A stretch of DNA of 64,000 bases from an uncultured Bacteroidota bacterium (GTDB lineage: Bacteria; Bacteroidota; Bacteroidia; Bacteroidales; 4484-276), in the NCBI GenBank assembly GCA_937950125.1, contig CALFEP010000305.1, forward strand, positions 978-64,977. The letters run 5' to 3'. The notes below the pieces were generated by a model that worked only from the letters and a program-made list of their open reading frames with translations, was not told where the DNA came from and did no database searches. Numbering within the stretch: the stretch's first letter is position 1; every line of letters begins with the position of its first letter. The position numbers and the translations under genes were made by a program. Positions 8,501 through 41,598 of the stretch are shown piece after piece.

Positions 8501-8660
8501 GGTTGGCAATAAATTCCAGCGGTGGATTATCTGCATTTTCAACCATACTCCACGACCAGTCGGCGCCCGTACCGGCGGGTTCAAAATCGATGGTGTGTGT
8601 AACTTGTGCCGTTATTGTGCCTGCAATAACCAGCATCAATACAAAGAAAAAATTTCTCAT
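5514..8660 (-). CDS. Modular secreted glycan-binding-type protein (no catalytic domain recognised) with T9SS CTD
   Basis: The signal peptide ends 'TITA|Q'. The N-terminal 'X1' and 'X2' modules resemble those of 12787-13842 closely (many identical positions by eye). Three tandem CBM20/48-like repeats follow ('VTFxVDM...FNGW...YEYKF...CWNSC'), then a 'GW/YWP-INT' double module, a 'GDxIGxF...YGDD' module and the CTD 'FPNPNNGRFTIN...GVYMVRI'. Confidence 0.75.
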   Translation of the reverse strand: MRNFFFVLMLVIAGTITAQVTHTIDFEPAGTGADWSWSMVENADNPPLEFIANPVSGGINTTPSVAKFTVRQYGQPWALCFTDGDGAFVFDQSNKLVKIMIYKSKISNVGMKFEGMSGGVEIQVANTLINQWEEITFDFSGSVGNSYSRIVIIPDFDFNPRPGDNVIYFDNIQVPDGFIAPPLAEPTTVPPVPGHAPENVLSIYTEVYPNLAGTNFNPNWGQSTTVTVDFLAAGNNTLKYANLNYQGTQFSNQNVSGYEYIHLDFWTPNSTSLKFYLISPGAETSYTLPITQETWVSVDIPLSHFVPPVNLSDVFQFKVDGNGTVYFDNWYFWKNPSTSTTVTFKVDMSQYGNSFGNVYVSGSFNGWSGDANQLLDPEMDDIYETTLELADGSYEYKFTLDNWSVQEQFQGGEPCTVTNGGYTNRALEVTGSMVLPAVCWNSCETCTFIPPDVTFNVDMNQYLNAFGNVYVSGTMNGWCGNCNLMTDPDLDGIYSITLPLAEGAYEYKFTIDNWAVQENFVGGEPCTVTNWGFTNRFLQVTESVVLPEVCWNSCDPCGEPPAIYDVTFKVDMNQYQGGYSIVTLNGTFNGWCGSCNILTDDDMDGVFEITLPLLEGSYQYKFTLNGWDIWEEFAGGEPCTVTLGGFTNRSLEVVDNTVLPAVCWNSCDECPTYPAGWNGISSNVNPVAKISMEELFAPILDDMIILLGKNGLFWPGQNINTIGNWDTYQGYKVKFSAGVDFQFEGTPLENRTVALSAGTSLLPVLSEEPASLEDVILPLGNNINFMFDISTGEVYWPAGGIVPGVNGALTTMYPGFAYLINVKNATIVDFGLVPPKSAPAKRFNHANPFVPSWNAVNKTGEQHIISVSGMAVLPNDIVGVFDNQGLCCGISANNEGAVMPLVIYGDDITTAAKDGLIQGEMMTFRIFRDGKETEVVPVFNQSFADRNGLFAKDGLSVISEFKEGTTGINYGETIAFTIFPNPNNGRFTINTDVSDACTFSVTNMHGQLVYSSKISGSLQLDLSNQPKGVYMVRISNSVTTAIKKVVVE
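6651..7640 (-). repeat. Three tandem intragenic repeats of about 105-113 aa (CBM20/48-like, Cys-containing)
   Basis: These are residues 341-446, 452-557 and 565-670 of the 1048-aa protein. Each shows the pattern VTF.VDM.QY...V.(V/L).G(S/T).NGW.G...(L/M).D...D.(I/V)(Y/F)..TL.L..G.Y.YKF...W...E.F.GGEPCTVT..G(Y/F)TNR.L.V....VLP.VCWNSC..C. Confidence 0.85.
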
Positions 8661-8775: not shown

Positions 8776-9462
8776 TCAGTTTTTAACAGCTGTCTGAAAC
8801 ACCCTCACATAGTCGATTTCCATGCTTTGTGGAAAAATTGAGTTGTCAATTCCCTGTGCGCCACCCCATGATCCTCCTACGGCTACATTCAGGATGAAAA
8901 ATGCCGGCTGGTCGAACGGCCAGTTTTCAGGCGTTTTCACATCCGGAGAATACACATGAACGATGTTTTCGGGCGTGTCAACATAAAATGTTAATGAGTC
9001 AGATGTCCAATCCATGCCGTAAATATGAAAATCTTCCTCACAGGTTGTTACCACCATCGAGCTTCCACTACCGCCACCACCGTATCCTGATGGAGTATGA
9101 ACCGTTGAATACACTGTATTCGGGTTGTAACCCACGTATTCCATAATGTCCATTTCGCCGCAGGCTGGCCAGCCATTTGTCCAGAAATTCTGTCCCAGCA
9201 TCCAGATGGCCGGCCAGATACCTGTTCCTGATGGTAGTTTTGCTCTTATCTCCATTCTACCGTACTGAAACTCCTTTTTCCCTGCTGTAATGAGCCTGGA
9301 TGATGTGTAAGAACCGGGTTGGAAAAGATTATTGACCAATTCAGCAGTGATGATCAGCTTTCCATCCACAACTTCTGCGTTTTCGCCGTTGGTGTAATTC
9401 TGCAACTCACCGTTGCCCCAGCCGCCTGAACCCGTTTCAAAAGTCCAGACTTCCGGGTTCAC
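8776..9462 (-). CDS. GH16 catalytic domain fragment (segment 3 of 3 of the interrupted 8776-13842 frame)
   Basis: It contains 'GWGNGELQNYT' and the catalytic 'GEMDIMEY', and ends 'IDYVRVFQTAVKN' at a TGA. The ORF-track 'M' is a GTG. There is no signal peptide, and the first GH16 strand ('LIWSDEFD') lies upstream of the in-frame TGA at 9469-9471. Confidence 0.8.
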   Translation of the reverse strand: MNPEVWTFETGSGGWGNGELQNYTNGENAEVVDGKLIITAELVNNLFQPGSYTSSRLITAGKKEFQYGRMEIRAKLPSGTGIWPAIWMLGQNFWTNGWPACGEMDIMEYVGYNPNTVYSTVHTPSGYGGGGSGSSMVVTTCEEDFHIYGMDWTSDSLTFYVDTPENIVHVYSPDVKTPENWPFDQPAFFILNVAVGGSWGGAQGIDNSIFPQSMEIDYVRVFQTAVKN

Positions 9463-9468
9463 CGCACT

Positions 9469-9471
9469 TCA
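9469..9471 (-). other. In-frame TGA inside the GH16 domain, at the expected Gly position
   Basis: The minus strand reads TGG TCG GAT GAG TTT GAC TGA AGT GCG GTG AAC CCG GAA GTC TGG, which translates W S D E F D * S A V N P E V W. Confidence 0.95.
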
Positions 9472-12400
9472 GTCAAACTCATCCGACCAAATCAACTCAT
9501 AATTTCCTGAACATTCAGGATAAGTGAAAGTGACGCCTTCGTCAGTATAAATGAAGTAAGACTTGCCGGGTTTCAGTACCGGCAAGGTATTTATTTCTTT
9601 GCCAGGCCAGTAAATTCCGATACCGGCTACCTCTTTAACTGCAACAACCTGTGGTAATCCTCCGAACAAGACAGCCGTATTTATATCACAGCTTGTTGTT
9701 ACAGGCACCACCGACCATCCCGCCGGGAGTGTGATGGTGCGTGATGCAACCTCATAGCCTGCAAAGGGAATTTGTGCGCCATTAATCATTTTAATGACGT
9801 AGCCTTTTTGTGAATCCCAGTTACCAAGTGTGTTTATGCCTTGTGAAGGTTGATAAATTCCGTCATCGCCATAGATAATTTCGATATCATTGGCAAAATT
9901 CCCAAACAACTCCTCAATACTGGTATTTGCCGGGATGACAAAACTCGAGATACCACTCCAGCCGGTTTGTGGCGAAATCAGCTGCAGCTGTGGCATTTCT
10001 TCTTCGAGCAACACCAGGTCATCAAAATAAAACTGACCGGGAATGAGGTGATTTTCACCACCCATTTGAATCACAAGCTGGTCGTAATCATCCCGGTTGG
10101 CAACGCTGCCAAAATCGAAGGTTAATGTCTGCCATTGGTCAAACGTAGTTACGGTCTGAAGAATTTCGGTTTGCGTTGTCCATGCATTTGGCCCCAGCAG
10201 GCTGTTTTGCAGTTTGATGGCTGCTGTGGTGGTCAAAGCTCCCGAATAATCGTTAGAAGACGGGAAATAAACCCTCATTTCGAAAACATGACGGTTGGTA
10301 AGGTTCATGCGATGATCGAGAATATTTTGGGCATTGGTGTAAAGAAAACCTCCCGACCGGTTGTAGTCAGCCACATGGTTGCCTGGATTTACAGGATCAG
10401 CAACAATCGATAGATTAACCAGGTCGGGGCTGTCCTGAAATTTCCAGTCAGTAATAGTAGCAAACCCGTCGTTCTCAAAATTATCCTGAATATCGCTTTC
10501 AAGAAGTGGTTTGTAGAGCGGTTCACCATTTGGCTGTGGCCCTTTGATATCGTCAAAATAGAAAACATTGGGTGTGGTGCTTTCAAAATCGAAAAACAGG
10601 ATGATGTTGTCATAAATGTCTGATTCTTCACCCGAAAAATCGAAATTCAGGCTTTGCCAGGTATTTACCAGCGTAACATAGGCCGACCTTTGCGTGTTCT
10701 GAGCCGGGTTGAGCGTGCTTTCAAGTTTCAATAAAACTTCGCACGTTACCGGCGAATAGATCGAAAACTGGAAATAATGGTCCACAGCAAAATTTACTGT
10801 AGAGTCAACAATGGTGAAAATGTTGGAATATGGCTCGGCTGGCCGGGATAATCTGCCAACGTTGGCACTAGTATTTATCCCTGAAGGATTTGGATTGGCA
10901 ACCACTTCAGGCGCCACAGGCCAGCCCGAAAATTCAACATTGACATTTGCGTCAAAGTCAGTATAGATGAAAGAAGGCTCGACGAATTCCGATACCACAA
11001 TGTATTCTGTTTTAGTCAGTTCATCACTGGTGAAAGGGTTGGATGCTTTGAGCTTAACGGAGTAAACCCCAGGAGTTTCATAAACGAAAAGAGGATTTTT
11101 AACGCTTGAATCGATAATTCCATCGTTGTTGAAATCCCATTTCCATTGGGTTATGTTTCCAAGCGAAAGATCGGTAAACTGCACAGCCATGGGTGTAAAA
11201 CCATTTCGCGGGCTTGCTGTAAAATTGGTAAGAATGCCCGAAGTTGAAGGCAGCAGAATGAAATCGTCGAAATAAAACTGCCCCTGATCGTTGTGGTTTT
11301 CACCCCCCAATTGTACGATAACCTGGTCGTAATTAACACTATCGGTGGCTGAGGTAAAAACAAAATCCAGCGTCACCCACTGGTCAAACTGTGTTACTGT
11401 CTGTACAATTTCGGTTTGCGTTGTGTAAGCATTCGCTCCAAGCAGGCTGTTTTGCAGTTTTACAGCAGCTGTAGGTGAAAGCCCTTTGCTGTAATTGTTT
11501 GATGAGGGGAAGTAAACCTTCATCCTGAATTTGTTACGCTGGGTCAATTTCATCCGGTGATCGAGGATAAACTGGGCATTGGTGTACAGAAACCCTCCAG
11601 ACCTGGCATATTCAGCCACATGATTAACAGGGTTCGTGGGATCGCTGGTAATGGTCAGGTTTACAAGGTCAGGGCTGTCCTGGAAGCGCCAGTTTTCGAT
11701 GTTTCCAAAACCATCGTCTTCAAAATTGTCGTTAATATCCAATGCCAGATATGGTTTTGGCTCCTGAAGGGTCGAAAAAGTCACGCTCTGGCCAGCAACC
11801 GGATTTCCCCCCTGATAACGGATAACTCCATCGTTTAAAGCAAGATAATATGTCTGTTCGTATTGCAGGCCACCGGTTGGAATAATGGTGATGAGTGTTT
11901 TTTGAGCGTTAATTGTACCCGTAAATGGCACAGAAGCACCTCCGGAGTTGTCCAGTTTCAATGTTACAATGGACGGAATATCTCCATTTGTAATGGCGCT
12001 TCCGTTGGTCTTTTCAACAGGAATTGTGAAGTTGAAAGTGGGATTTGTTGCTAACGGAATGTTCACCGATCCATTGGCAGGAGTTATGGTGAGGCTCCCC
12101 GTTCCCGGGTATTTCCAGAAATACAGGTTATCAAACCAGATGTCGCCGTTTCCTTCAGTTTTAAACTGAAAAACCTGTGAAAGATTTACTGGTGGTGAAA
12201 AGTGCGATAGTGGAATGTCCACACTCACCCATTGCTCAGGCTGGATGGTAAAAACATATTCTTTTTCCAATGGTCCAGGGCTGATGAGGTAAATTCCAAG
12301 ATCAGTTGAATTGGATGTCCAGAAATCAACATGCAGGAAGTCGTAGTCAGAAACATTCTGGCTGGTGAATTCGGTTCCCTGATAATTCAGGTTCTGATAG

Positions 12401-12744
12401 CGGAGTGTATTATTTCCTGCTACCACATAATTTACAGTAACGATGGTTTGTTGACCCCACCAGGGGTTGAAGTTCGTACCGGCAAGGTTTGAATATTGGT
12501 CACTGTAAACCGAAATGACATCTTCCTCAGCATGGGTTGGAACTGGTGGAACGGTTGATGGTTCGGGGCTTGCCAACGAAAAATTCACACTGTAGGTCAG
12601 GGTGTTAATCCCGTTTTGAGCGGTAACCACAACATTGGTGGTTCCTGGCAGCGAAGCAGCATTGTTGACAACAAAACTTGCATTTGGATCATTTGTAACT
12701 GCAGTCACTACCGGTACGGTGGTCGTCCCATAAGGCAATTCCAC
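9469..12744 (-). CDS. Segment 2 of 3 of the interrupted frame: a multi-module glycan-binding region
   Basis: The frame is actually open from 12786. The ORF-track start at 12744 is a GTG lying mid-domain. There is no signal peptide. Module order is rest of the cadherin-like module, X2, an Ig-like (SbsA/Big_5-type 'TPANGS.N') module, A module, PKD ('WDFNNDG...YSVKL'), X3, A module, GW/YWP-INT double module, then the first GH16 strand. Confidence 0.7.
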   Translation of the reverse strand: MELPYGTTTVPVVTAVTNDPNASFVVNNAASLPGTTNVVVTAQNGINTLTYSVNFSLASPEPSTVPPVPTHAEEDVISVYSDQYSNLAGTNFNPWWGQQTIVTVNYVVAGNNTLRYQNLNYQGTEFTSQNVSDYDFLHVDFWTSNSTDLGIYLISPGPLEKEYVFTIQPEQWVSVDIPLSHFSPPVNLSQVFQFKTEGNGDIWFDNLYFWKYPGTGSLTITPANGSVNIPLATNPTFNFTIPVEKTNGSAITNGDIPSIVTLKLDNSGGASVPFTGTINAQKTLITIIPTGGLQYEQTYYLALNDGVIRYQGGNPVAGQSVTFSTLQEPKPYLALDINDNFEDDGFGNIENWRFQDSPDLVNLTITSDPTNPVNHVAEYARSGGFLYTNAQFILDHRMKLTQRNKFRMKVYFPSSNNYSKGLSPTAAVKLQNSLLGANAYTTQTEIVQTVTQFDQWVTLDFVFTSATDSVNYDQVIVQLGGENHNDQGQFYFDDFILLPSTSGILTNFTASPRNGFTPMAVQFTDLSLGNITQWKWDFNNDGIIDSSVKNPLFVYETPGVYSVKLKASNPFTSDELTKTEYIVVSEFVEPSFIYTDFDANVNVEFSGWPVAPEVVANPNPSGINTSANVGRLSRPAEPYSNIFTIVDSTVNFAVDHYFQFSIYSPVTCEVLLKLESTLNPAQNTQRSAYVTLVNTWQSLNFDFSGEESDIYDNIILFFDFESTTPNVFYFDDIKGPQPNGEPLYKPLLESDIQDNFENDGFATITDWKFQDSPDLVNLSIVADPVNPGNHVADYNRSGGFLYTNAQNILDHRMNLTNRHVFEMRVYFPSSNDYSGALTTTAAIKLQNSLLGPNAWTTQTEILQTVTTFDQWQTLTFDFGSVANRDDYDQLVIQMGGENHLIPGQFYFDDLVLLEEEMPQLQLISPQTGWSGISSFVIPANTSIEELFGNFANDIEIIYGDDGIYQPSQGINTLGNWDSQKGYVIKMINGAQIPFAGYEVASRTITLPAGWSVVPVTTSCDINTAVLFGGLPQVVAVKEVAGIGIYWPGKEINTLPVLKPGKSYFIYTDEGVTFTYPECSGNYELIWSDEFD

Positions 12745-26979: not shown

Positions 26980-27000
26980 GATCCGGAATCCTGAACTCAA

Positions 27001-27040
27001 AAAAAAACCTCTGTACCATGATGGATACAGAGGTTTTTTT
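27001..27040. terminator. Bidirectional rho-independent terminator between convergent genes
   Basis: The structure is A7-CCTCTGTA(27008-27015)...TACAGAGG(27026-27033)-T7. Confidence 0.75.
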
Positions 27041-27054
27041 ACCTGAACTGATTT

Positions 27055-28680
27055 TTATTTTTTCAGATCATGATCAATCTCCACCTCGCCGGTGTTTTCA
27101 ATTTTGATACCCTCATTTTTGGTACATGAAGGATAGGTTATTGATGCCGAGGACGACATTTTTCCAAGATAAGCTTTTCCGGGCTCCAGTGTCTGAAGTG
27201 TATTGATATTTTGTGCCGGCCAGTAAAGCCCGGTTCCGGCAACTTCTTTGATGATCATTACTTTGTTGATCACCGGGTTAAAAACGTCGCTTACTGACAC
27301 TTCGCAGTTACTCAGTACCGGAAAAAGATTCCAGCCCGATACCAATGTAAGGTTGCGTGTTGAAGCAAGGCAACCGGGCACAGAAAAGGTAGCCGGATTG
27401 TTCATTTTTATTTCATAGCCTTTGGTCCGGCTCCACGAACCTATTGTGTTTGTGCCCAGGCTTGGATTGTATGTCCCTGTAAGGGTTTGCATAACTATCA
27501 CATTACTGACAATTGGGCTGAACAGGGTGTTGAGCGAAGTAACTGCCGGTGTTTGGTAACTCGATAAACCCGACCATCCGGCAGGTAACTCGATACGATG
27601 ATAGCAAAAACCCGACAGGCTGTCGATTGCCGATAACCCACCCGAAATCCATTTATCGGGTGCTACCGTGTTGGGGAGTGTACGGCGTGTAAAAGTCACG
27701 TAGTAGTCGTCGTCGGCATTGGGCCACGAATAGAACCTCCAGTTAATAACTTCGTTATAGCCAAATCCCTCTTTTTGTGTGGTATAGGTATCATCGCCCT
27801 GAAGCACAATCGGTGTATTTTTTTCGGGTGACCAAATTCCGTATCCGCCGCATTTCAGGTTTCCGTTTTCGTCGTAATAAAAACCACCAATCAGATCACC
27901 TAACTGCAGAGGAACTCCACAGATGTCGGGTTTTGAGGTATTCCACACCGAGATAGTCATGATTCCAAAATAGGGAGGTGGTTTTTCCCAGCCGGGTGGC
28001 GTGCCAAAATTGTAGTAATAAACCTTGTAATTTTGATTGAAATAGCTGGTAGTGATGTTGGTGTAGGTCTTTGTCAAAGGTGTTATGTAGTAATAATTGT
28101 TGCTGCTCGAAACATATTCAGGATCGAAAGTGCCGCTCCAGCAAGGCAAAAACTGCAACGAATATTCACCCAGTGCATTGGTTGTAACCTGAATCTTGCT
28201 GAGGGCGCCGTTTTTGGGCCTTAAAACGATGGTTTTATTGGCAAAAGGAGCACCGGTGACCGAATCGGTGAAAGTACCCGAAATGGTAAGCATCTGGCTG
28301 GCAATAAACGTGTAGTTCTGATTCACCGAATCGGATTTCAGGTTTGTGTAAGTACGCAATCCGGGTGTGAAAACGTATAAATCGCAGCAGTAGAAAGGAG
28401 TAACCGTTCCACTCCATGTCCTGATAACATCTTTGGTATAAAATCCTTCCGAATTGGTGGTTGCCGTTCCAAAATCGGGTACAAACGACAGGGTTACTCC
28501 CTGATAAGGTAAGGTGTCAGTGCCGTTAATAAAAAATACATAACCCGAGATTGTATGATTAATCCGCAGATTGGTGGAATCTTTTCGCCCGTCCGAATTA
28601 TCATTGCTGACGGTAACATTCTGTGCATTAAGTGTAATTACGAAAGCAACAGTAAACAACAACAGCAGTATTTTTTTCAT
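27055..28680 (-). CDS. Secreted protein of unknown function (paralog 'C'); no T9SS CTD
   Basis: The signal peptide ends 'TLNA|Q'. Two CarboxypepD_reg-like modules ('WSGTVTP', 'CWSGTFDPEY') are followed by a 'GDLIGGF...GDDTYT' module and a GW/YWP-INT double module. It ends 'ITYPSCTKNEGIKIENTGEVEIDHDLKK'. Confidence 0.7.
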   Translation of the reverse strand: MKKILLLLFTVAFVITLNAQNVTVSNDNSDGRKDSTNLRINHTISGYVFFINGTDTLPYQGVTLSFVPDFGTATTNSEGFYTKDVIRTWSGTVTPFYCCDLYVFTPGLRTYTNLKSDSVNQNYTFIASQMLTISGTFTDSVTGAPFANKTIVLRPKNGALSKIQVTTNALGEYSLQFLPCWSGTFDPEYVSSSNNYYYITPLTKTYTNITTSYFNQNYKVYYYNFGTPPGWEKPPPYFGIMTISVWNTSKPDICGVPLQLGDLIGGFYYDENGNLKCGGYGIWSPEKNTPIVLQGDDTYTTQKEGFGYNEVINWRFYSWPNADDDYYVTFTRRTLPNTVAPDKWISGGLSAIDSLSGFCYHRIELPAGWSGLSSYQTPAVTSLNTLFSPIVSNVIVMQTLTGTYNPSLGTNTIGSWSRTKGYEIKMNNPATFSVPGCLASTRNLTLVSGWNLFPVLSNCEVSVSDVFNPVINKVMIIKEVAGTGLYWPAQNINTLQTLEPGKAYLGKMSSSASITYPSCTKNEGIKIENTGEVEIDHDLKK

Positions 28681-28692
28681 GTCAGGGATGTT

Positions 28693-30960
28693 TTATTTGT
28701 TTAAAACCAGTTTTTCAATTTTCACGTAACCTGAATTTTCAATCTTTACCATGTAAATTCCACTGTGCAACCCTGAAAGATCTATTTCAGTCTGGTCAGC
28801 AATTAATCCATCAAATACTGATTTTCCAAACAAATCGGTAATGGTGAGATGATAGGTTGCCCCTGCATTGCCAGCGCTGAATTTTAGCGATTCTGAGGCC
28901 GGATTTGGATAAAAACTGACAAATTCGTTGTTCATTTCACCCGTGCCGGTTGAGGTAAGCTGCATTTCTTTAAACGCCGATAAACCATCGGTAACAAAAG
29001 TGCCATCGCAGGAAGGCAGCGAACAGTCGTATTCAGCCCAGACATCGTATTGTTTTTTGGTGGATGGCCGGTACAGCTTAAAGGTGAGCATTTCGCCATC
29101 GTAAAAACCTTCGGATTCATAAGTTAGATCATCGTCGCCGTAAATCGTGATCACAGCATTTCCAGTGGTATTTTCTATCATTGTAAGCCCTGCACAGGTA
29201 CCATCCTGCATAAAGGCGCCAATGTAATCGCCACTGTTCACCTGAGTGAGGCAACCTGCGGGAATGGCAATGTTGTGGGTGGCAGTGTTCACAACCGGGG
29301 TGTTCCAGGGAGTGAGGTTTGTTATTTCAGGAATTGGCTCATGATTTATTTTTTCGTTGCCCGAACATGCCGGATAGGTGATGGTTGCCGAAGAGGTCAT
29401 TTTGGCAAGATAGGCTTTTCCGGGTTGTAATATCTGCAGGGTGTTTATTCCCATTTCAGGCCAGAAAACACCTGGGCCGGCAACATCTTTAATGATGGTA
29501 ACCTTGCTGATGACCGATGAAGTGAAGACACTGGTAAGGTAAACGTTGCAGTTGACCAGCACCGGAAAAAGATTCCATCCCGAAGCAAGCGAAACCGAAT
29601 TGCTGGTTCCCGGGCATCCTTCTATCGGAAGTGTACGGGCGTTTGCCATCTTTATTTTGTAACCTTTTGTGCGGCTCCATGCCCAGGTTCCGGGAACACT
29701 TCCGCCCGGCCAGTAGGTTTGGGTGAGGTTTTGCAGAATAACCAGGTCGCTCGTTACAGGGCTGAAAAGATTGGCAGCCGTAATGTTTGAAACCCGTGTA
29801 ACCTGGTAGCTCGAAATGCTTCCCCATCCTGCCGGAATTTCCACTTTATGGTAAAGATACCCTGGCATGGTCTGGATGGCCGAAAGTGAACCAGGGCTCC
29901 ATTTACCATCGTAGTCCAATGGCTGACCACCGAGGTTGGTAAAGTAGGTGGGATATGCCGGGTAGGTTTCATCATTGTCCCATGAATAAAACCTCCAGTT
30001 AATCACTTCGTTTCCGTTAAAACCATCTTTTTCAGGAGTATAGGTATCGTTTCCTTTTAATACCACCGGGGTGTTTTTTTCGGGAGTCCACAACCCGTAA
30101 CCACCACATTTCAGTGAACCATCATCGCCAACATAAAAACCTCCAATAAGGTCGCCTAACTGCAAACCCGTAGTGCAAAAATTGGGATTGGAGGTTGTAA
30201 ATACTGATATTGTGTGAACACTGGGTGCATTTGGTGGGTATTCCCAACCCGGCGGTGTGCCATAATTAAAATAATAAACTTTAAAATCCTGATTTGTGTA
30301 ATTCTGTGATATGTTGTTGAAGGTTCTTGTAAAAGGAGTAATGAATAAATCGGTGCCATATTCCGGATCAAAAGTTCCGCTCCAGCAGGGTAAAAACTGT
30401 AATGAATACTGCCCCTGAGAATTGGTTGTGATTTGAATTTTCGGAATCTCGTTACCATTTTTATACCTCAGCACAATGGTTTTATTGGCTATTGGGTCGC
30501 CTGTGAGTGAATCGGTAAACGTGCCGGATATGGTAAACAATTGACTTGTTACAATGGTAAAATTCTGATTGCTTTGATTGGCGGTAACGCCGGTAAAAGT
30601 ACGGGTTGCAGGAGTGCTTGTAAAGGAATAGGACGAACAGGAATAAACCGGTGTTACAGTTCCACTCCATCCCGATTCAAGAGATAATGAGTACTTTCCA
30701 TAGGCATCGGTGTAAATAGTGGTGTCTTTAGGTAAAAATTTAACCGGATAACCCGCCCAGGCAGTCGAATTTCCATTGTAAGAAATATTAATATAGCCTG
30801 AAATGGTAATATTGGCTTTTGGGTTAATGGAGTCTCCTCGGGAAATAGCTGGCTCATTTTTGCTAAGTGCATCTTTTGCCAGTGTTTGTGAAAATACATT
30901 TGCGACGAAAATAGTACTGTTCAGCAAAAGGAACAGTAAGGTTGATATTATTGTCTTCAT
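28693..30960 (-). CDS. Secreted protein of unknown function (paralog 'D') with an extra module and T9SS CTD
   Basis: It has the same module order as 27055-28680, plus a second 'GDYIGAF...YGDDDLT' module and the CTD 'FYPNPASESLKFS...GIYMVKIEN'. The start is trimmed to the ATG at 30960, giving MKTIISTLLFLLLNSTIFVANVFS|Q. Only 12 nt separate it from the next gene. Confidence 0.7.
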   Translation of the reverse strand: MKTIISTLLFLLLNSTIFVANVFSQTLAKDALSKNEPAISRGDSINPKANITISGYINISYNGNSTAWAGYPVKFLPKDTTIYTDAYGKYSLSLESGWSGTVTPVYSCSSYSFTSTPATRTFTGVTANQSNQNFTIVTSQLFTISGTFTDSLTGDPIANKTIVLRYKNGNEIPKIQITTNSQGQYSLQFLPCWSGTFDPEYGTDLFITPFTRTFNNISQNYTNQDFKVYYFNYGTPPGWEYPPNAPSVHTISVFTTSNPNFCTTGLQLGDLIGGFYVGDDGSLKCGGYGLWTPEKNTPVVLKGNDTYTPEKDGFNGNEVINWRFYSWDNDETYPAYPTYFTNLGGQPLDYDGKWSPGSLSAIQTMPGYLYHKVEIPAGWGSISSYQVTRVSNITAANLFSPVTSDLVILQNLTQTYWPGGSVPGTWAWSRTKGYKIKMANARTLPIEGCPGTSNSVSLASGWNLFPVLVNCNVYLTSVFTSSVISKVTIIKDVAGPGVFWPEMGINTLQILQPGKAYLAKMTSSATITYPACSGNEKINHEPIPEITNLTPWNTPVVNTATHNIAIPAGCLTQVNSGDYIGAFMQDGTCAGLTMIENTTGNAVITIYGDDDLTYESEGFYDGEMLTFKLYRPSTKKQYDVWAEYDCSLPSCDGTFVTDGLSAFKEMQLTSTGTGEMNNEFVSFYPNPASESLKFSAGNAGATYHLTITDLFGKSVFDGLIADQTEIDLSGLHSGIYMVKIENSGYVKIEKLVLNK

Positions 30961-31082
30961 AGTTAATGGTTTAATTATTAACAAATTATCCTCTTTTTAA
31001 ATAAAAATCCCGCACAAATTTAGACACACTTTAATTAAAATCATAATTTTTTTCCACACAATTAAGAAGTACATCTGAAAAT

Positions 31083-34852: not shown

Positions 34853-37804
34853 TTAACGGTTTATTACAATTTTTTTGGTCGATGTTGCCCCGGGTGTTTT
34901 CAGTCGCACCAAATACATTCCATTTGTCAGAGGCGAAACATCAATGGATAACTCAGAGCCTGTTACATGTATCATTTTTCTGAAAATCGTCTCGCCGGGC
35001 ATATTTAATACCTCGATTTCAACGAATTCATGGTTTTCATTGTCGAAGCTGATGGTCAAAAAGTCGTTTACGGGATTGGGTGATAGTGTAAAGCCATAAT
35101 CCGACAAGTCGATTATTCCGGTACAATCATGTATTTCAACACTGAATGTTTCAGAAAGTGGGCCGTCGCCGCATTCATTTATCCCCATAACGGTAATGTC
35201 AGCTGAACCAAAATAAGCATCACTCCATACGATTTCAAGCATATTTTCCACTACCGTGATTGCTGAAAAAGCATTTTCGGGAGAAATTGCCCAGTCGTAT
35301 GACTGGGCAAAGGCAACAGCCGGGCAGGTGTAGGTTTCGGCACTTCCGGCACAAACTTCGGATTCGCCGGCGATGGCTGAAGGCTCACCGGGCAGTGGAT
35401 CGATTGTAAGCACCAAATCATCGCTGTCGGAGTTGCCGCTGTTGTCGGTGGCCGTGAGCGTCAAAACTGCCGAACCTGCTGTAATATCGCTGGTTCCGGG
35501 TGTGTAAACGGGATTGAGGATTGAAGGATTGTTAAAAAGACCGTCGCCAGAAGTTGACCAGATGACGGAAGTAAAATAGGTAGCGCTTCCGGCACACTGA
35601 AAGGTTTCATCCTCGCAAATTTCACCGTCCGAACCAGCCTGCGATGTAACGGTGGCTGAAGGTGGAAAAATGATATAATCGACCCACCCGCAGTCAGAAC
35701 CGCTCACAACATAAACGTCTTTTTCGTAAACCCATTTGTACGTATGATTTCCTGCAAAAACATCATAACTGACTTCCGTCCAGGCAACGTTGCCCGACCA
35801 TTGGTTTTTCAATTGGTTATCGATATAAAATTTCAGGTAATCGTAGTCCTGTTCCGACGAAACTTTTACATAGAACGAAATTGTTCCGGCGGTTGCCGCC
35901 TCTTTCGTTATCATCATCTGTGTTGTCTGGCTGTTGCCGATGTTGCCCGATTTTGCCGAATACTGTCCATCCCAGGCATTTGTTCCATCAATGGTCCAGT
36001 TAGCATTGCCACCAAAAGTCCAGCCTTGTCCAAAGGTTCCGGTTTCAAAACTGATTGCTGTGGATTCGGTTAATTCGAAGTCAACCACGGTATTGTTTTC
36101 ATTCACCTGAACTTCCTGAATCAGTGTAGCGTAATTCAGGGCAAACACCCTGAAGCTATAGGTGTTTTCGTAAATTTCGGGAATTACGTACTGACCGCTT
36201 CCGTTGGTGTACACCGGATCGATGGGGGTATTCAAAACCTGGATCATGGCTCCGCTGATCGGCTCACCCGAGTCGCTGTCGGTAACCGTTCCGCTAACAG
36301 CAATAATCTGGCTCTGCACAAGGGCAACATCAAGGGTGGTTTGCCCGGTGCTGTTGATGTTTACATTGTTAAAAGTCTGTGAGATGTAACCAAATTTCGA
36401 AAATGTCACCGTGTAATTTCCGTTTGGCAACAAGCGATAATAGGTTCCGAAATCTTCATCACTTTTGTAAGGTTCACGGTAAAGTCCTGTATTGTCGATA
36501 CCCTGAACATAAATTTCAGCAACCAAAGGGTCGCCTGAAGTGGCATTTGTTATATGCCCGGTGAGCGTGGCAGCATTCACCCTGTTCAGGAGAATCATGG
36601 CCGCCTGAAGGTTATCTTCACAAATCTGGTAAACCTCATTGGCCGGAGGAATAAACTCGGTGCCCAGTTCGATGGTATAACCGAAAATTCCGTGTTTACC
36701 GTAGGAATAATCATCGGTAACGCCCGAGCAGGGATACAACGCCCAACATGGTTGTGGTGTGTAATGGCCACCCGAAATTCCGGGAATTGAATTTCCCATG
36801 GCAGTTCCCAAAGCTTCCAGGGCAGTTACATCAGGAGCTACAGCACCATCCTGGTACCCGTAAGGCCATAAAACCAGTTCGCTGTAGGTGTGGTACGAAA
36901 TGCCGGCTACAAAATGGTGATTTGCCAGCAAATCCTTAATAGCCTGGGTTTCCGGTTCCGAAAAAGGCTCAGGACCACAGTATGTAATATCATTTGGATC
37001 GGTGGTGGTGCCAGTTCCTCCCCATTCCCACCCATAATTGCGGTTGAGGTCAACGCCGTCGGGATAATCCCAGCCTCCGGGGGTTAAATTTCCATTTCCG
37101 TCGTTATCGCGTATATTTTTACGCCAGTCGGTGTTGATCTGATCAAGAACTATTTCGTGGCCATCCGGATTTACTATAGGAACAAACCAGATTTCCTTTG
37201 AATTGATGTTGGCTGTTACTTCCGGATTGCTGCCATAATTGCTTACCAGGTAATTCAAAACATAAAATGCTACTTCGGTGCTGAGGGGTTCGCGGGCGTG
37301 ATGTGCTCCAAAGTAGTAAACAGATGGTTCATCTTCCTCAAGTTCAACATTATCCGAAACCTTCAATGCCCAGATATCGTGCTGATAGTTTGAATAATTT
37401 CCATAGCCTGAGCTGTAATAATTTTTTCCGCGACTGTTGCCTATATCGATTAGTTTGCAGAAAGATGGATGGGCAGCTGCAATGTTTTGAAGTTCAGTTA
37501 ATGCCTCTTCATAAGTGCGGTAGCCGTTGATATCGTCAACATTGCCCAGATTGGCAGCCATTTCGGCGATTGTTTTTACAATTTCAACAGAGTAACCCTG
37601 GTCGAGGATTTTTTGATATTCAGCATCTGTTACGACCAGATCGAGGAATTCACCTGGTTTGTAAGCGGCAACATCATAATTGGGTTGAGTAAATTTTTTG
37701 ACTGTAATTGGTTCGGGATTACTGAAACGAATGATGACTTTTTCTTGTGAAAACAAAGTGATTGCAAACAACATGGCAATCACAAACAATAAATTTTTTT
37801 TCAT
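34853..37804 (-). CDS. M14 zinc carboxypeptidase with CarboxypepD_reg, MAM-like and PKD-like modules and T9SS CTD
   Basis: M14 motifs are 'GAHHAREPLS' (HxxE), 'NPDGHE', 'DLNRNY' and 'SYHTYSE'. The CTD is 'LSPNPVNDFLTISF...GMYLVRL'. The start is trimmed to the ATG at 37804, giving MKKNLLFVIAMLFAITLFS|Q. Confidence 0.85.
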   Translation of the reverse strand: MKKNLLFVIAMLFAITLFSQEKVIIRFSNPEPITVKKFTQPNYDVAAYKPGEFLDLVVTDAEYQKILDQGYSVEIVKTIAEMAANLGNVDDINGYRTYEEALTELQNIAAAHPSFCKLIDIGNSRGKNYYSSGYGNYSNYQHDIWALKVSDNVELEEDEPSVYYFGAHHAREPLSTEVAFYVLNYLVSNYGSNPEVTANINSKEIWFVPIVNPDGHEIVLDQINTDWRKNIRDNDGNGNLTPGGWDYPDGVDLNRNYGWEWGGTGTTTDPNDITYCGPEPFSEPETQAIKDLLANHHFVAGISYHTYSELVLWPYGYQDGAVAPDVTALEALGTAMGNSIPGISGGHYTPQPCWALYPCSGVTDDYSYGKHGIFGYTIELGTEFIPPANEVYQICEDNLQAAMILLNRVNAATLTGHITNATSGDPLVAEIYVQGIDNTGLYREPYKSDEDFGTYYRLLPNGNYTVTFSKFGYISQTFNNVNINSTGQTTLDVALVQSQIIAVSGTVTDSDSGEPISGAMIQVLNTPIDPVYTNGSGQYVIPEIYENTYSFRVFALNYATLIQEVQVNENNTVVDFELTESTAISFETGTFGQGWTFGGNANWTIDGTNAWDGQYSAKSGNIGNSQTTQMMITKEAATAGTISFYVKVSSEQDYDYLKFYIDNQLKNQWSGNVAWTEVSYDVFAGNHTYKWVYEKDVYVVSGSDCGWVDYIIFPPSATVTSQAGSDGEICEDETFQCAGSATYFTSVIWSTSGDGLFNNPSILNPVYTPGTSDITAGSAVLTLTATDNSGNSDSDDLVLTIDPLPGEPSAIAGESEVCAGSAETYTCPAVAFAQSYDWAISPENAFSAITVVENMLEIVWSDAYFGSADITVMGINECGDGPLSETFSVEIHDCTGIIDLSDYGFTLSPNPVNDFLTISFDNENHEFVEIEVLNMPGETIFRKMIHVTGSELSIDVSPLTNGMYLVRLKTPGATSTKKIVINR

Positions 37805-37829
37805 CGTAAATGTGTTAAATATCTGATTT

Positions 37830-37882
37830 ATAATAGATAAAAGGGTAAAGTACAATCCGGTTGCACAGGAATGACTTTACCC
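37830..37882 (-). terminator. Candidate terminator after the 37907-41482 gene
   Basis: A 9-bp stem, GGGTAAAGT (37843-37851) with ACTTTACCC (37874-37882), is followed on the minus strand by TTTTAT. Confidence 0.45.
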
Positions 37883-37906
37883 AAAGACTCGTAATTGAGA
37901 AAAAGT

Positions 37907-40900
37907 TTACCGGCGAACAACAATTTTTTCAGTGATCAGTTGGTTTTCGCCTTCCAGTTTCAAGAAGTAAATACCGTCAGGTATTGCAGATAATTCAATT
38001 TTGAGGGGTGATTCAACCCCTGATTGTTCAAATATCTGATTAAAAACAATGACTCCTGTTGTTGCGGTTATGGTTACTTTTGAAATACAGACAGCTGCAT
38101 CATCAAAACTAATGGTGAATACACCTGTGGATGGATTTGGGAATACTTTTATGGCTGATTCCTCAGCAGGTTCATCCACACCAAGGCAGTCATCAACCAT
38201 GATATTCAGGGTTGGCGAAAATGGTCCTTCACCACAATCGTTCGCCGCTTTTACTTTCAAGGTTGCGTTACCAATGTAAGAATCACTCCAGGTGATGGTA
38301 CATTCGTTCCAGTTTGCCGTAACAACTCCGCTTGAATTGGGATCGAGGTACCAAAGGTACTCGGTTGCCTCGGGAATAGCTGGAATCTGGTACAAATGTG
38401 TTTCGCCCCAACAAACGGATTCAGCGCCGGTAATATTTACGGGAGCTAACGGTACAGGCACTACCACAATTTCCAATGCCCCCGACCAGTTGCTTTCGCC
38501 ACACAGATTTGAGGTTTTTACTTTAAGGGTGGCTGTACCCGAATACGTTGCTGACCAGTCAACAATTACAGATGGTCCATTTGGTGTGAGGGCTCCTGCC
38601 GAAACAGGTAAAATTTCCCATGTCCAACCTGTTGCGCCCACAGCATTGTTGGTGGTATAGGTGGAATTGGCGGCATTCTGGCAAAGTTCAGTGGGTCCGG
38701 TTGGAATTGCAGGCTGCTCAGGATCAGGATAAACAATAAGGTATTCCAGTTCCATGGCTGTATTTGAATTGGTTCCGTCAGAAACGGTCAGCGTAACACC
38801 ATACATTCCGGCATTGGCATAGGTTACCAAAGGATTCTCTTCGTTGGAAGTGGCGGGTGTTCCTCCCGGAAATTCCCACTCCCAGCTGGTGATGTTCCCA
38901 ACACTGTTATCGTAAAAATGCACCTGCCCGCCGTGGCATATTTGATTTACATCTGACGTAAATCCTGCCTGCAGAATATCGCCCTCAATCACTACTGTGT
39001 AATCTTCCACTTCGCCATATGTTGCCGATCCGCAGGGTGTTGGCGCTGAGCTGTAGGTCATGCGTGCCCGCAGGCGGTAATGTCCGGGATTGGTTCCCGC
39101 CGGTGCGGTGATGTTTCCCGTGAAGGTTTGTCCCTGGCCGCCAACATTGGTTAACTGGAAGGTTTCGTTGGACGGACTTCCGAGTTCAAAATCGTTGTTC
39201 CAGTCAACCCAGACATAAACAATGTCGGAAGCCCAGGCATTGCCGTTGGTGATGGTGATGGGAACGGCTACACCCGGTTCGAGGATGGTGGATAAATTGG
39301 TATAATTGCCAACGCCGCCCTGCCATCCGCTCGAATTGTTGATTGTGCCAAAGGAAACATTGGCAATGTATTCGTCTTCGGTGCCTGTCGAAGCAGAGCA
39401 ATAATCGGGGAAGGTAACATCAATCAGTTTTGTGGTCAAAGCCACATTCGTTCCCTGGTAGTCAAGTTGCAAGGTTGCCACATGCCCAGCCGGAGCGCCT
39501 GCCTGTGCCGAAACTGTATAGGTGGCAGTGGCGGAGGCGTTGATGTTGATGTTGCCAAATGTCTGAGGTTGAGTTGTGACCACGGTTACATAAGGATCGT
39601 TGCAGGTAAGTGTCCCAACAATGGCAAGGGCTGTTTCACTACCGGCATTTTTTAGGGTAATGATGTAATCGGCAGTTTCGCCAGGTTCCAGAATTCCGTT
39701 GTTATTACCATTCGAGTCGTCCACTTCAACGCTTTCCAGCAAAAGATAAGGGCCGGTTACAGCACTTAATGCCTGAATGGCATCCAGGTCGAAACCAGCA
39801 TCAGCAGCACTGGCATTTCCATCGCCATCATCTAAAATTTTGAAATAACGGGCTTCGGAGAGTGTGCAGTTTTCAAAACTAAATTCGGTTGAACCACTGC
39901 CCGTACCCATCGTGTACCATGGGCCATCCATGCTGGTTCCGGCGTAAAATGTATAGCCTTCGGCTGAGGCATCACCTTCAAAAACCATCAGGTCAGGTCC
40001 GGCGCCATCAAAAATTATATCCTTCATGTCAACGATAATCCAACCGCTTTTTCCAATCGAATAGTTGACGTTATCGGGTTGACCAATACAGGCCCATGTT
40101 GCGCCTTCATCGTTGGGGTTATTTCCTGGAATCTGGCTGGCGATAATCTTGTAAATACCCTGGTTGTCATCCTGTGTAAGCTGGAAATTGGTAACCGTGG
40201 CATTGTTGGCAGTAACCACTACGCCTGTAACCACCTTTGTCTGATAGCCGTTGGCTTTTACGGTAATGTTGTAGGTTCCGGGCAAAACATATTTGTGGTA
40301 ATCGCCCACTTCAACATCGGTATAGCAGGGAAAATAATTGTTAACGAAAACGGTAGCAGCAACAGGTTCGCCGGTGGTTTCATCGGTGACAGTACCGGCA
40401 AGGCCATAACCTGAATATTCCATCATTGCCAGCATTGCTGGTTTATTGTAGTTGTAGTAGAGCATGATTTGCGAAGCAGGCGGTTGTTTGCTCATCGAAA
40501 TTTCCATCGACCAGCTTACCGATCCCTGAATGCCGTATCCTGCATCTTTGGTGCTTCCGTTAATCGGGTACATCCCCGTGTAGCCCGGACCGTAAGGTAT
40601 GTTTGAATAGCCCGAAACATCAGCATATACACTTGCAAGTTGGTTTACATGTGCATGATCGGGCGACTGGCTGGCACGGTAGCTCCAGGGGTGCGAAATA
40701 AACTCGGTTCCGCTGTGGTATGAAGTATAAACCACAAAGGGAGTTTCCATTATGGCATTGCGCAAAATCCTTGTTTCCTGCTGCGACCATGAGCCAACGC
40801 TTTCCTGGTCCCACATGTAGCCGCAATCGCGGTTAAGGTCTTCGCCATTGTTGTTGTAACGGGTCATATTTACCCTACCGTCAGGATTCACCATCAGGTA

Positions 40901-41482
40901 AAGCCAGGTTTCACGCCCGTTTACCAGGTTGGTGATTTGCGTATTGCTTCCATATCCCAGGCATAAATCACGGGCAAAGCGGATCAGGTTTTCAGGGCCT
41001 CCGATTTCATCTCCGTGAATACCTCCGTCGAAAAACAATTCTGGTTCATTTTCATCTGTCATAACATTGTCGCTGATTTTCAGCGCTGCAAGTTGCCGTC
41101 CCCCTAATGATGTTCCATACACAACCTTCTTGCAAATGGAAGGGAAATTTTCAGCAAGGCTGTCGGCAAGGTTGATAATTTCCTGGTAACTGTGGTAAGC
41201 GTCATCTTTTTCCCAGAAATCTGCAAAATGTCCGTTCAGATCATCAATCTGAATGGAATAATCCAATCCGGTGGCTTCAATTTTCCGGAGTTCATCAGGC
41301 GTAACATACATGGTAGCATAAGCAGAATAGATGTCCCCGTTCAGCTTGAGGGATGCGAGTTTTTGAGCGTCCTGGGTTGAGTTAATTGTTACTTTCACTT
41401 CCATTTCGCCCTGGCGCCAACCCTGGGCAAACGAAGCAGTAAGCATAGTTAAGGTAAGCAATGTGAGTAAAAGCTTTCTCAT
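37907..41482 (-). CDS. M14 zinc carboxypeptidase with CarboxypepD_reg, GEVED, PKD and PKD-like modules and T9SS CTD
   Basis: M14 motifs are 'GGIHGDEIGG' (HxxE), 'NPDGRV', 'DLNRD' and 'SYHSGTE'. The GEVED signature is 'TYGEVEDYTVVI'. The CTD is 'VFPNPSTGVFTISF...GIYFLKL'. The start is trimmed to the ATG at 41482, giving MRKLLLTLLTLTMLTASFA|Q. Confidence 0.85.
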   Translation of the reverse strand: MRKLLLTLLTLTMLTASFAQGWRQGEMEVKVTINSTQDAQKLASLKLNGDIYSAYATMYVTPDELRKIEATGLDYSIQIDDLNGHFADFWEKDDAYHSYQEIINLADSLAENFPSICKKVVYGTSLGGRQLAALKISDNVMTDENEPELFFDGGIHGDEIGGPENLIRFARDLCLGYGSNTQITNLVNGRETWLYLMVNPDGRVNMTRYNNNGEDLNRDCGYMWDQESVGSWSQQETRILRNAIMETPFVVYTSYHSGTEFISHPWSYRASQSPDHAHVNQLASVYADVSGYSNIPYGPGYTGMYPINGSTKDAGYGIQGSVSWSMEISMSKQPPASQIMLYYNYNKPAMLAMMEYSGYGLAGTVTDETTGEPVAATVFVNNYFPCYTDVEVGDYHKYVLPGTYNITVKANGYQTKVVTGVVVTANNATVTNFQLTQDDNQGIYKIIASQIPGNNPNDEGATWACIGQPDNVNYSIGKSGWIIVDMKDIIFDGAGPDLMVFEGDASAEGYTFYAGTSMDGPWYTMGTGSGSTEFSFENCTLSEARYFKILDDGDGNASAADAGFDLDAIQALSAVTGPYLLLESVEVDDSNGNNNGILEPGETADYIITLKNAGSETALAIVGTLTCNDPYVTVVTTQPQTFGNININASATATYTVSAQAGAPAGHVATLQLDYQGTNVALTTKLIDVTFPDYCSASTGTEDEYIANVSFGTINNSSGWQGGVGNYTNLSTILEPGVAVPITITNGNAWASDIVYVWVDWNNDFELGSPSNETFQLTNVGGQGQTFTGNITAPAGTNPGHYRLRARMTYSSAPTPCGSATYGEVEDYTVVIEGDILQAGFTSDVNQICHGGQVHFYDNSVGNITSWEWEFPGGTPATSNEENPLVTYANAGMYGVTLTVSDGTNSNTAMELEYLIVYPDPEQPAIPTGPTELCQNAANSTYTTNNAVGATGWTWEILPVSAGALTPNGPSVIVDWSATYSGTATLKVKTSNLCGESNWSGALEIVVVPVPLAPVNITGAESVCWGETHLYQIPAIPEATEYLWYLDPNSSGVVTANWNECTITWSDSYIGNATLKVKAANDCGEGPFSPTLNIMVDDCLGVDEPAEESAIKVFPNPSTGVFTISFDDAAVCISKVTITATTGVIVFNQIFEQSGVESPLKIELSAIPDGIYFLKLEGENQLITEKIVVRR

Positions 41483-41598
41483 TGTAGAAGTGTTTAAGTT
41501 AGTATAAAAATGAAAATAAATTTTTGTTGACATTGTAAGAATCAAATTCCTGATAATCAATATTTTTAATTATCCGGCAATTCAAATTTTAAAAAGGG

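Follow-up and report, generated by a model that had tools for sequence, protein, structure and literature searches.

In Porphyromonas gingivalis a type IX secretion system (T9SS) exports a protein and its C-terminal domain (CTD) is exchanged for a lipopolysaccharide (LPS) anchor. Canonical cargo of this system, RgpB for example, is built of functional domains followed by an Ig-like domain and a type A CTD. To occur once per protein, at the C-terminus and regardless of the cargo is a trait of modules that sort, anchor or dock proteins, T9SS CTDs, dockerins and SLH domains being examples, and substrate-binding modules and spacers are usually arranged in variable tandem arrays. Here we describe two modules, M1 (~155 aa) and M2 (~115-130 aa), that recur in a 64,000 nt stretch of DNA from an uncultured Bacteroidota bacterium (GenBank assembly GCA_937950125.1, contig CALFEP010000305.1, positions 978 to 64,977; the whole of this stretch is referred to below as the window), where they are carried by a tandem pair of genes, C and D, and by two further genes. 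M1 and M2 are accessory tail modules of T9SS cargo and constitute two uncurated domain families, one of them possibly with a new fold.

Both C and D lie on the minus strand with 12 nt between them, and a preliminary description of the window, made from its letters without database searches, was right to regard them as tandem paralogs, the two being 51% identical and collinear along the whole of C (BLASTP E = 0). The order of parts in D is a Sec signal peptide, two prealbumin-like (CarboxypepD_reg-like) repeats, M2a, M1, M2b and a T9SS type A CTD (PF18962, TIGR04183). C follows this order up to M1 and then ends in a 22-aa tail, so that what D has beyond C is a second M2 and the CTD; no Por_Secre_tail match was found in C with either Pfam or NCBIfam. 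The PF18962 score of D is 48 bits and that of the protein encoded at 5514-8660, which consists of three carbohydrate-binding module (CBM) repeats of the CBM48/AMPK-CBM type followed by M1, M2 and CTD, is 52.3 bits, the cut-off being 27. Pfam identifies nothing in C and D besides a weak N-terminal CarboxypepD_reg sandwich and the CTD of D, and neither protein has a catalytic domain. D (M2-M1-M2-CTD) is of the anchored type and has little cargo, and C (M2-M1) is its conserved twin without a CTD. The database entry for D is a 755-aa protein, and other metagenomes hold orthologs with 83-89% identity across the M1 region.

Translation and alignment bear out all eight module copies, four of M1 and four of M2, that the preliminary description had located in the window, as well as its observation that three of the four M1 copies end in 'TYP.C(S/T)(G/K)N'. 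The recurrence is beyond chance, with the M1 of D being 30% identical to that of the 5514-8660 protein (BLASTP E 2e-24), and M2 is likewise a real unit, M2a and M2b of D matching each other at E 7e-10. M1 had also been described as two similar halves, and these align to one another with an hhalign probability of 99.15% (E 3.8e-19, 72 columns). Furthermore, hidden Markov models (HMMs) built from the four window copies retrieved ~100 more copies from the genome at E values of 1e-20 to 1e-54.

The scale on which these modules are used became apparent when six-frame open reading frames (ORFs) of the 5.8-Mb assembly were searched with paralog HMMs. M1 is present in 114 ORFs, exactly once in each and never in tandem, M2 is present as 95 domains across 86 ORFs, and the type A CTD was found in 316 ORFs by an iterated HMM, with at least 150 above the Pfam cut-off. 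There are 67 ORFs that end M1-M2-CTD and these have a fixed geometry, with median gaps of 20 aa between M1 and M2 and 7 aa between M2 and CTD, and 220 aa from the end of M1 to the stop. In another 39 ORFs M1 is the last recognised module and there is no CTD, the stop falling no more than four residues past the domain in 33 of them ('...FPxC[E/D/K]*'). The stops of these M1-terminal ORFs are TAA in 23 cases, TAG in nine and TGA in five. Read-through or frameshifting into a downstream M2-CTD was considered and rejected, given that 32 of 37 stops are TAA or TAG and that the frame downstream is non-coding, usually with several stops; no M2-CTD ORF was found in another frame after M1-terminal ORFs, and the only in-frame continuation is that of the GH16 gene of the window. 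Signal peptides of the signal peptidase I (SPase I) type are found in 31 of 34 M1-terminal and 45 of 62 M1-M2-CTD ORFs, many of the remainder ending at contig edges, and in both classes Gln is found at +1. The possibility that M1-terminal proteins are surface lipoproteins was also rejected, their signals being of the SPase I type with Ala/Ser-Gln sites and no lipobox Cys.

Neither module belongs to a curated family. Using the 2025 version of Pfam and the June 2026 version of NCBIfam, the three full-length window proteins gave nothing across M1 or M2 at E <= 1, and scanning 62 M1 and 53 M2 sequences singly gave scattered single matches, nearly all at E > 0.01. A sequence search of the PDB with four M1 and M2 profiles returned noise (E >= 0.58). 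Of the 115 module sequences none is matched by a CBM model of Pfam, nor is there a CBM among Foldseek matches in the PDB at E < 0.1. The same is true of the domains that might have been anticipated from the architecture: M1 and M2 have no Pfam match to Dockerin_1 (PF00404) or Cohesin (PF00963) and no significant Foldseek match to either, no NCBIfam match to TIGR04131 (type B CTD) or NF033708 (type C CTD), and no match to PF18962 or TIGR04183, whilst TrkA_C is not matched by M1 nor any Pfam E-set family by M2. That either module is a divergent T9SS CTD was rejected, since M1, its halves and M2 each gave an hhalign probability of < 1% against an alignment of 320 CTD sequences from this genome. 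Literature on the T9SS in Lentimicrobiaceae and Lentimicrobium, and on CTD-less cargo, yielded no account of M1 or M2. The preliminary description had assigned the modules to no described family, and this holds, with nothing above noise for either unit in Pfam, NCBIfam or the sequences of the PDB. M1 and M2 are genuine extracytoplasmic domains that are named in no curated database.

Structures were predicted with AlphaFold2 from alignments of this genome's own paralogs. The M1 model is alpha/beta (predicted local distance difference test, pLDDT, 96.0; predicted template modelling score, pTM, 0.90) and each half contains approximately six strands and a short helical segment; M1 arose through duplication of a ~75-aa alpha/beta unit. 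Foldseek found no neighbour of the M1 model in the PDB (best E 0.5, template modelling (TM) score < 0.3) or in BFVD (best E 0.07, TM-scores <= 0.32), and M1 is a candidate for a new fold. Two cysteines, at profile columns 96 and 156, are both present in 40 copies, both absent from 60 and present singly in only two (Fisher p = 2e-26). Such co-occurrence is best accounted for by a disulfide, which would fit an oxidising extracytoplasmic location, and in ~40% of copies a Cys96-Cys156 bond probably links the last residues of the domain with the beginning or middle of its second half. The cysteine pair was also tried as a marker of architecture class and no correlation was seen. Approximately 18 M1 positions are conserved across paralogs that are only 30-40% identical, and the conserved aromatics are W6, Y/W-P, W89, W127 and Y144.

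The M2 model is an all-beta sandwich of 7-8 strands (pLDDT 96.8, pTM 0.89), for which Foldseek finds only generic sandwiches in the PDB (best E 0.07, probability up to 0.89, TM-scores 0.30-0.40), the top matches being beta-glucuronidase (8dhv), FlgD (3osv), the PapC C-terminal domain (3l48) and CnaB domains. Its motif set is W4, H14, GD.IG.F, C41 and GDD..T..DG..GE. A single unpaired Cys41 is present in 94% of copies and His14 in 92%, Asp30, Asp61 and Asp62 are 85-87% conserved and Thr65 is also conserved; judging by sequence conservation, the acidic cluster may be a Ca2+ site. In copies that lack Cys41 its place is taken by Val, Leu, Ile or Asn, a choice that suggests a structural role in the interior rather than a nucleophile.

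The proteins that carry these tails are unrelated to one another. Sampled M1-terminal proteins include two gingipain-like Peptidase_C25 proteins with propeptide, two M14 carboxypeptidases, two multihaem cytochromes (MtrC/MtrF-like) and Exo_endo_phos nucleases, as well as proteins with LTD, pectate-lyase-like, BNR, PKD, CUB, MAM and BACON domains. Among sampled M1-M2-CTD proteins are GH9, LRR, BACON and Peptidase_C1 with a lectin-like domain, and in several the CTD is the sole Pfam domain. In other metagenomes M1 is found alongside an M28 peptidase, arrays of CBM20/48, a domain resembling cohesin, and PKD arrays that have a dockerin at their end. C and D themselves close a co-directional block that runs propeller sensor kinase, two M14-CTD proteins, a GEVED/PKD-CTD protein, D and C. 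As C and D end a peptidase block and the modules are attached to unrelated cargo throughout the genome, starch-binding proteins included, the link with GH16 that had been remarked upon in the preliminary description is incidental, and M1 and M2 are cargo-agnostic.

A maximum likelihood tree calculated for 102 M1 domains has M1-terminal and M1-M2-CTD proteins interspersed, with 19 changes of architecture against a mean of 28 when shuffled, and at least four of the 19 are forced by well-supported branches. A separate M1-terminal subfamily was rejected on account of this interspersion, and the two classes share one M1 family. The tandem of a D-like gene with CTD followed by a C-like gene without is syntenic on two other metagenome contigs, and one ortholog shares 75% identity with the whole of C, short tail included, which together indicate that the CTD-less state is old and has been kept up. 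Both modules are present in each of the 22 genomes sampled from the family, the Lentimicrobiaceae, M1 at 33 to >92 copies and M2 at 30 to >108 copies, and in 18 family genomes the two counts are correlated with r = 0.98. In the other 18 families of the order M1 was found in five (1-5 copies) and M2 in two (3 and 12 copies). Among 300 other Bacteroidota genomes M1 was found in 30, mostly as one or two copies and nearly all in other classes. One of these, a complete genome of 64% GC from a different class, encodes a single-copy 1163-aa protein with CxxCH, M1 ('LEAGWNLVS...'), a degenerate M2 and a CTD, and another genome of a different class encodes a 1300-aa M1-terminal protein. With the cassette and an M1-terminal case both found in a different class, both architectures predate the expansion within the Lentimicrobiaceae. 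Searching 1.84 billion proteins with the M1 profile gave 11,587 cluster representatives at E <= 1e-3, of which 1,277 were at E <= 1e-30.

What M1 and M2 do was the subject of a guess in the preliminary description, namely glycan binding or cell-surface display. The first part is not supported, given the unrelated cargo and the incidental nature of the GH16 link, whilst the second fits the C-terminal, single-M1 anatomy. Our preferred reading, which is drawn from the architecture and to which we would give a little less than an even chance, is that M1-M2 is a cargo-independent cassette for surface display or tethering; that the cassette holds proteins at the surface is more likely than that it binds one sugar. 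This reading follows from M1 being single in each protein, C-terminal, independent of cargo and expanded within a lineage, and CBM48 and PKD are found in tandem arrays within these same M1 proteins. The T9SS would export the CTD-bearing proteins, the CTD providing for both export and a covalent LPS anchor, and the exchange of the CTD would leave M2 and M1 beside the membrane. M1 would then dock either to a component of the envelope or to the M1 or M2 modules of anchored paralogs, and the same docking would retain CTD-less, M1-terminal proteins such as C at the surface.

A number of points weigh against a display or tethering function. Its assignment is an extrapolation from architecture, a second tether looks redundant in M1-M2-CTD proteins that already have a covalent T9SS anchor, the M1-terminal proteins may simply be periplasmic, and M1 is also found upstream of a catalytic GH16 domain and is hence not strictly a tail. 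Furthermore, only ~8 of ~38 M1-terminal genes adjoin a CTD-bearing member of the family, and no recurrent partner gene was found within 4 kb of M1-terminal genes, the only neighbours to recur beside more than two of the 34 being other secreted multi-domain proteins that bear M1, M2 or CTD. With few CTD neighbours and no recurrent partner, genomic context does not point to a docking partner.

Of the other readings, the one that survives best is that M1, and perhaps M2, is a CBM for one common ligand, such as a polymer of particulate substrates or peptidoglycan, and serves to target many kinds of enzyme to it. The modules are indeed present in GH16, GH9 and CBM48 proteins, M1 has many conserved aromatics, the beta-sandwich of M2 has an acidic cluster resembling the Ca2+ site of many CBMs, and LysM is an example of a broad-ligand module that is also borne by enzymes of diverse kinds. 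It would nevertheless seem unlikely, as neither Pfam nor Foldseek at useful scores finds a CBM, M1 is C-terminal and never present more than once, unlike the tandem CBM48 and PKD arrays, and the cargo extends to multihaem cytochromes, LRR proteins and minimal proteins that have no cargo at all.

More doubtful is the reading in which M1 and M2 each supply one half of a system, as yet undescribed, for surface assembly in Bacteroidota. M1 would here be a new fold, either dockerin-like or a new C-terminal sorting tag, M2 would be a cohesin-like receptor placed beside the T9SS anchor, and ~35 CTD-less enzymes per cell would dock onto ~65 T9SS-anchored proteins. The docked set would include gingipain-like proteases, nucleases and outer-surface cytochromes and could form a multi-enzyme coat or lattice, and C and D would be a dedicated adaptor pair.

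It is improbable, although it would explain why in each genome ~35 enzymes of a typical surface kind have M1 at their end and not a CTD, that M1 is itself an outer-membrane export or sorting signal, be it an unrecognised T9SS C-terminal class or a tag for some other route. C-terminal domains that unrelated secreted enzymes have in common across a lineage have historically proved to be sorting signals, the CHU_C or type B CTD being an example, and 33-39 ORFs have M1 at their extreme C-terminus, followed by a clean stop. The cargo (C25 with propeptide, PKD, CUB, MAM and BACON) normally bears a CTD in other Bacteroidota, and an M1-terminal protein is also found in a genome of a different class. 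However, in 67 proteins M1 is internal and precedes M2 and a canonical type A CTD, where an export signal would be redundant, its alpha/beta structure is not the beta-sandwich of a CTD, the CTD profile of this genome is not matched by it, it is able to precede a GH16 domain, and neither a PorP/SprF-like gene nor another dedicated partner adjoins the M1-terminal genes. Short and long CTDs in Prevotella intermedia, reported in 2025, indicate that T9SS signals are more varied than had been assumed (PMC11969387). Motifs B, D and E of that study are not present in M1 or in the tail of C.

Marginally less probable is that M1 and M2 are inert spacers, a stalk that holds the cargo off the membrane, their expansion being the result of cassette copying by recombination. 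Whilst the fixed geometry of the cassette and the likeness of M2 to generic Ig-like sandwiches would be in keeping with a stalk, the number of tandem copies usually varies in spacers like PKD, fn3 and Big and M1 is strictly single, ~18 of its positions are conserved among distant paralogs, there is nothing to space at the extreme C-terminus of 33-39 proteins, and minimal proteins made up of a signal peptide, 45 aa, M1, M2 and CTD are conserved. Finally, it is very improbable that M2 is catalytic or self-processing, through a Cys41-His14-Asp centre or an N-to-S acyl shift, for despite the unpaired Cys and the well conserved His and Asp residues in an extracellular domain, Val, Leu, Ile or Asn can stand in for the Cys, M2 is a plain beta-sandwich with no likeness to a peptidase, and a Rhodothermus-like copy has no Cys.

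Table 1. Positions in the window of genes C and D, their modules, and the modules of the two other genes.
Feature	Position	Strand	Evidence
Gene D	28693-30960 (ORF 28693-30984; ATG at 30960)	-	translation, Pfam, NCBIfam
D signal peptide MKTIISTLLFLLLNSTIFVANVFS/Q, SPase I type, Gln at +1	30886-30960	-	heuristic signal-peptide scan
D CarboxypepD_reg-like beta-sandwich (repeat 2 of 2, N-terminal)	30376-30534	-	PF13620 E 1.1e-7, residues 151-203
D M2a, longer 'PPGWEyP...KCGG' M2 subtype	29857-30255	-	alignments; HMM 171 bits
D M1, internally duplicated alpha/beta, predicted Cys-Cys staple	29365-29841	-	alignments, AlphaFold2, hhalign, covariation
D M2b, beta-sandwich immediately before CTD	28954-29310	-	alignment, AlphaFold2 pLDDT 96.8
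D T9SS type A CTD	28705-28911	-	PF18962 E 1.6e-12, TIGR04183 E 1.8e-11, residues 692-760
Gene C, 541 aa	27055-28680	-	translation; 51% identical to D
C M2a	27607-27999	-	alignment; HMM 160.7 bits
C M1	27124-27591	-	alignment; sister of D M1 in tree, SH-like approximate likelihood ratio test 97
M1 of 5514-8660 protein	6168-6641	-	translation, alignment, BLASTP against D M1
M2b of 5514-8660 protein	5775-6107	-	translation, alignment, HMM
CTD of 5514-8660 protein	5520-5729	-	PF18962 E 6.9e-14, residues 978-1047
M1 directly N-terminal to GH16, TGA-interrupted gene	9511-9969	-	translation

A number of further observations were made on these genes and their relatives. The tail of C, NEGIKIENTGEVEIDHDLKK (27058-27123), is weakly like the last strands of the D CTD, VKIENSGYVKIEKLVLNK (7 of 13 residues, E 0.35), it also resembles the linker between M1 and M2 of D, and it is kept in the 75%-identical ortholog P0159. 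It could be the remnant of a deleted CTD, but the weakness of the likeness and the lack of motifs B and D (GxY) of the P. intermedia short CTDs speak against a remnant or a 'short' CTD. The M1 that precedes GH16 is one of few copies to be followed by a catalytic domain. The stop that interrupts this gene (8776-12744, minus strand) is a TGA at 9469-9471, 13 residues past M1 and within the GH16 motif 'LIWSDEFD*', and the frame runs on cleanly through the full GH16 domain. The M14 genes upstream of D (34853-41560) share CarboxypepD_reg, PKD_6 and GEVED with their neighbours and have a type A CTD, and as they lack M1 and M2 the cassette is optional even inside one operon-like block. In the window C and a DPP-IV (S9) gene are directly adjacent (26980-27054), and on two related contigs an HTH/HipA-type toxin-antitoxin module is found between the C ortholog and a convergent DPP-IV gene (L114:10791-11911, L115:2596-3716).

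Elsewhere in the genome, five paralogs of ~460 aa consist of a signal peptide, ~45 aa, M1, M2 and CTD (C67:12520-13899, C25:48441-49817, C314:7937-9334, C173:16572-17942 and C16:10578-11987), the ~45-aa segment being conserved as 'GGYY.GENL.LSWTLGEP..ETF.....LTQGFQQP', and related genomes also hold ORFs of similar size with M1 or M2. A CxxCH haem-c motif is present in three M1 proteins, lying just past the signal peptide ('GGKTGS.GD...CTQCH') in P0162 (L111:6646-8364) and in the protein at C88:10688-14974, and at a deeper position ('ACADCH') in P0168 (L107:3270-6761), within a large N-terminal region that Pfam does not match. Taken with the M1-terminal proteins of the MtrC/MtrF-like kind, these motifs suggest use of the M1 tail by a set of surface cytochromes. 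In two distant Bacteroidota a single-copy M1 gene adjoins envelope-glycan genes (L107:1901-3076; L109:2425-3618 and 9764-10915), these being a GT1 glycosyltransferase in one genome and a UDP-GlcNAc 2-epimerase and a WecA/MraY-like Glycos_transf_4 in the other; with two cases only, this may be chance.

M1 has no Pfam or NCBIfam model, although over 11,000 protein clusters contain it, as does roughly one fifth of T9SS cargo across the Lentimicrobiaceae, a family represented by metagenome-assembled genomes from many metagenomes. Defining the two families would improve the annotation of thousands of proteins that are currently 'hypothetical' or merely 'T9SS sorting domain-containing'. The ~35 typical surface enzymes per genome that end in M1 are either not surface proteins, or the Bacteroidota display or export proteins that have no CTD.

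When known systems are compared, the best local Foldseek matches to one half of M1 are RCK_C/TrkA_C domains (MthK 1lnq and BusR 7b5u), over 62-71 columns with a root mean square deviation of 3.6-5.3 A and a similar beta-alpha-beta-beta...'PG.aY' hairpin pattern. These matches are not significant (E 1.4-3.6, probability <= 0.25, target-normalised TM <= 0.41), and RCK_C/TrkA_C domains sense ligands in the cytoplasm, unlike M1, which is secreted and probably contains a disulfide. M2 belongs to the general sandwich class, its Foldseek matches to Ig-like, FlgD and GH2 Ig-like (E-set) domains being weak; it has its own motif set and matches no E-set family in Pfam. The type B (CHU_C/TIGR04131) and type C (NF033708) CTDs of the T9SS are, like M1, lineage-expanded C-terminal domains on unrelated secreted Bacteroidota proteins; M1 differs in being alpha/beta, twice as long, unmatched by their HMMs and without an adjacent PorP/SprF-like gene.

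There is also a resemblance to the cellulosome. M1 is, as dockerins are, small, internally duplicated, C-terminal on unrelated enzymes and present once per protein, M2 is, as cohesins are, a beta-sandwich module in proteins that carry an anchor, and M1 proteins from outside the family co-occur with Pfam cohesin and dockerin domains. However, there is no likeness of sequence or fold, a dockerin being a pair of EF-hands, and M1 and M2 are usually found in one polypeptide. There is a likeness to canonical T9SS cargo too, in that D, the 5514-8660 protein and 65 others in this genome end in a type A CTD and the M2 sandwich immediately precedes the CTD, in the position that the Ig-like domain takes in RgpB. 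The differences are that neither M1 nor M2 matches a curated model, that an extra ~155-aa M1 is placed before the sandwich at a fixed spacing, and that about a third of M1 proteins are CTD-less and end in M1.

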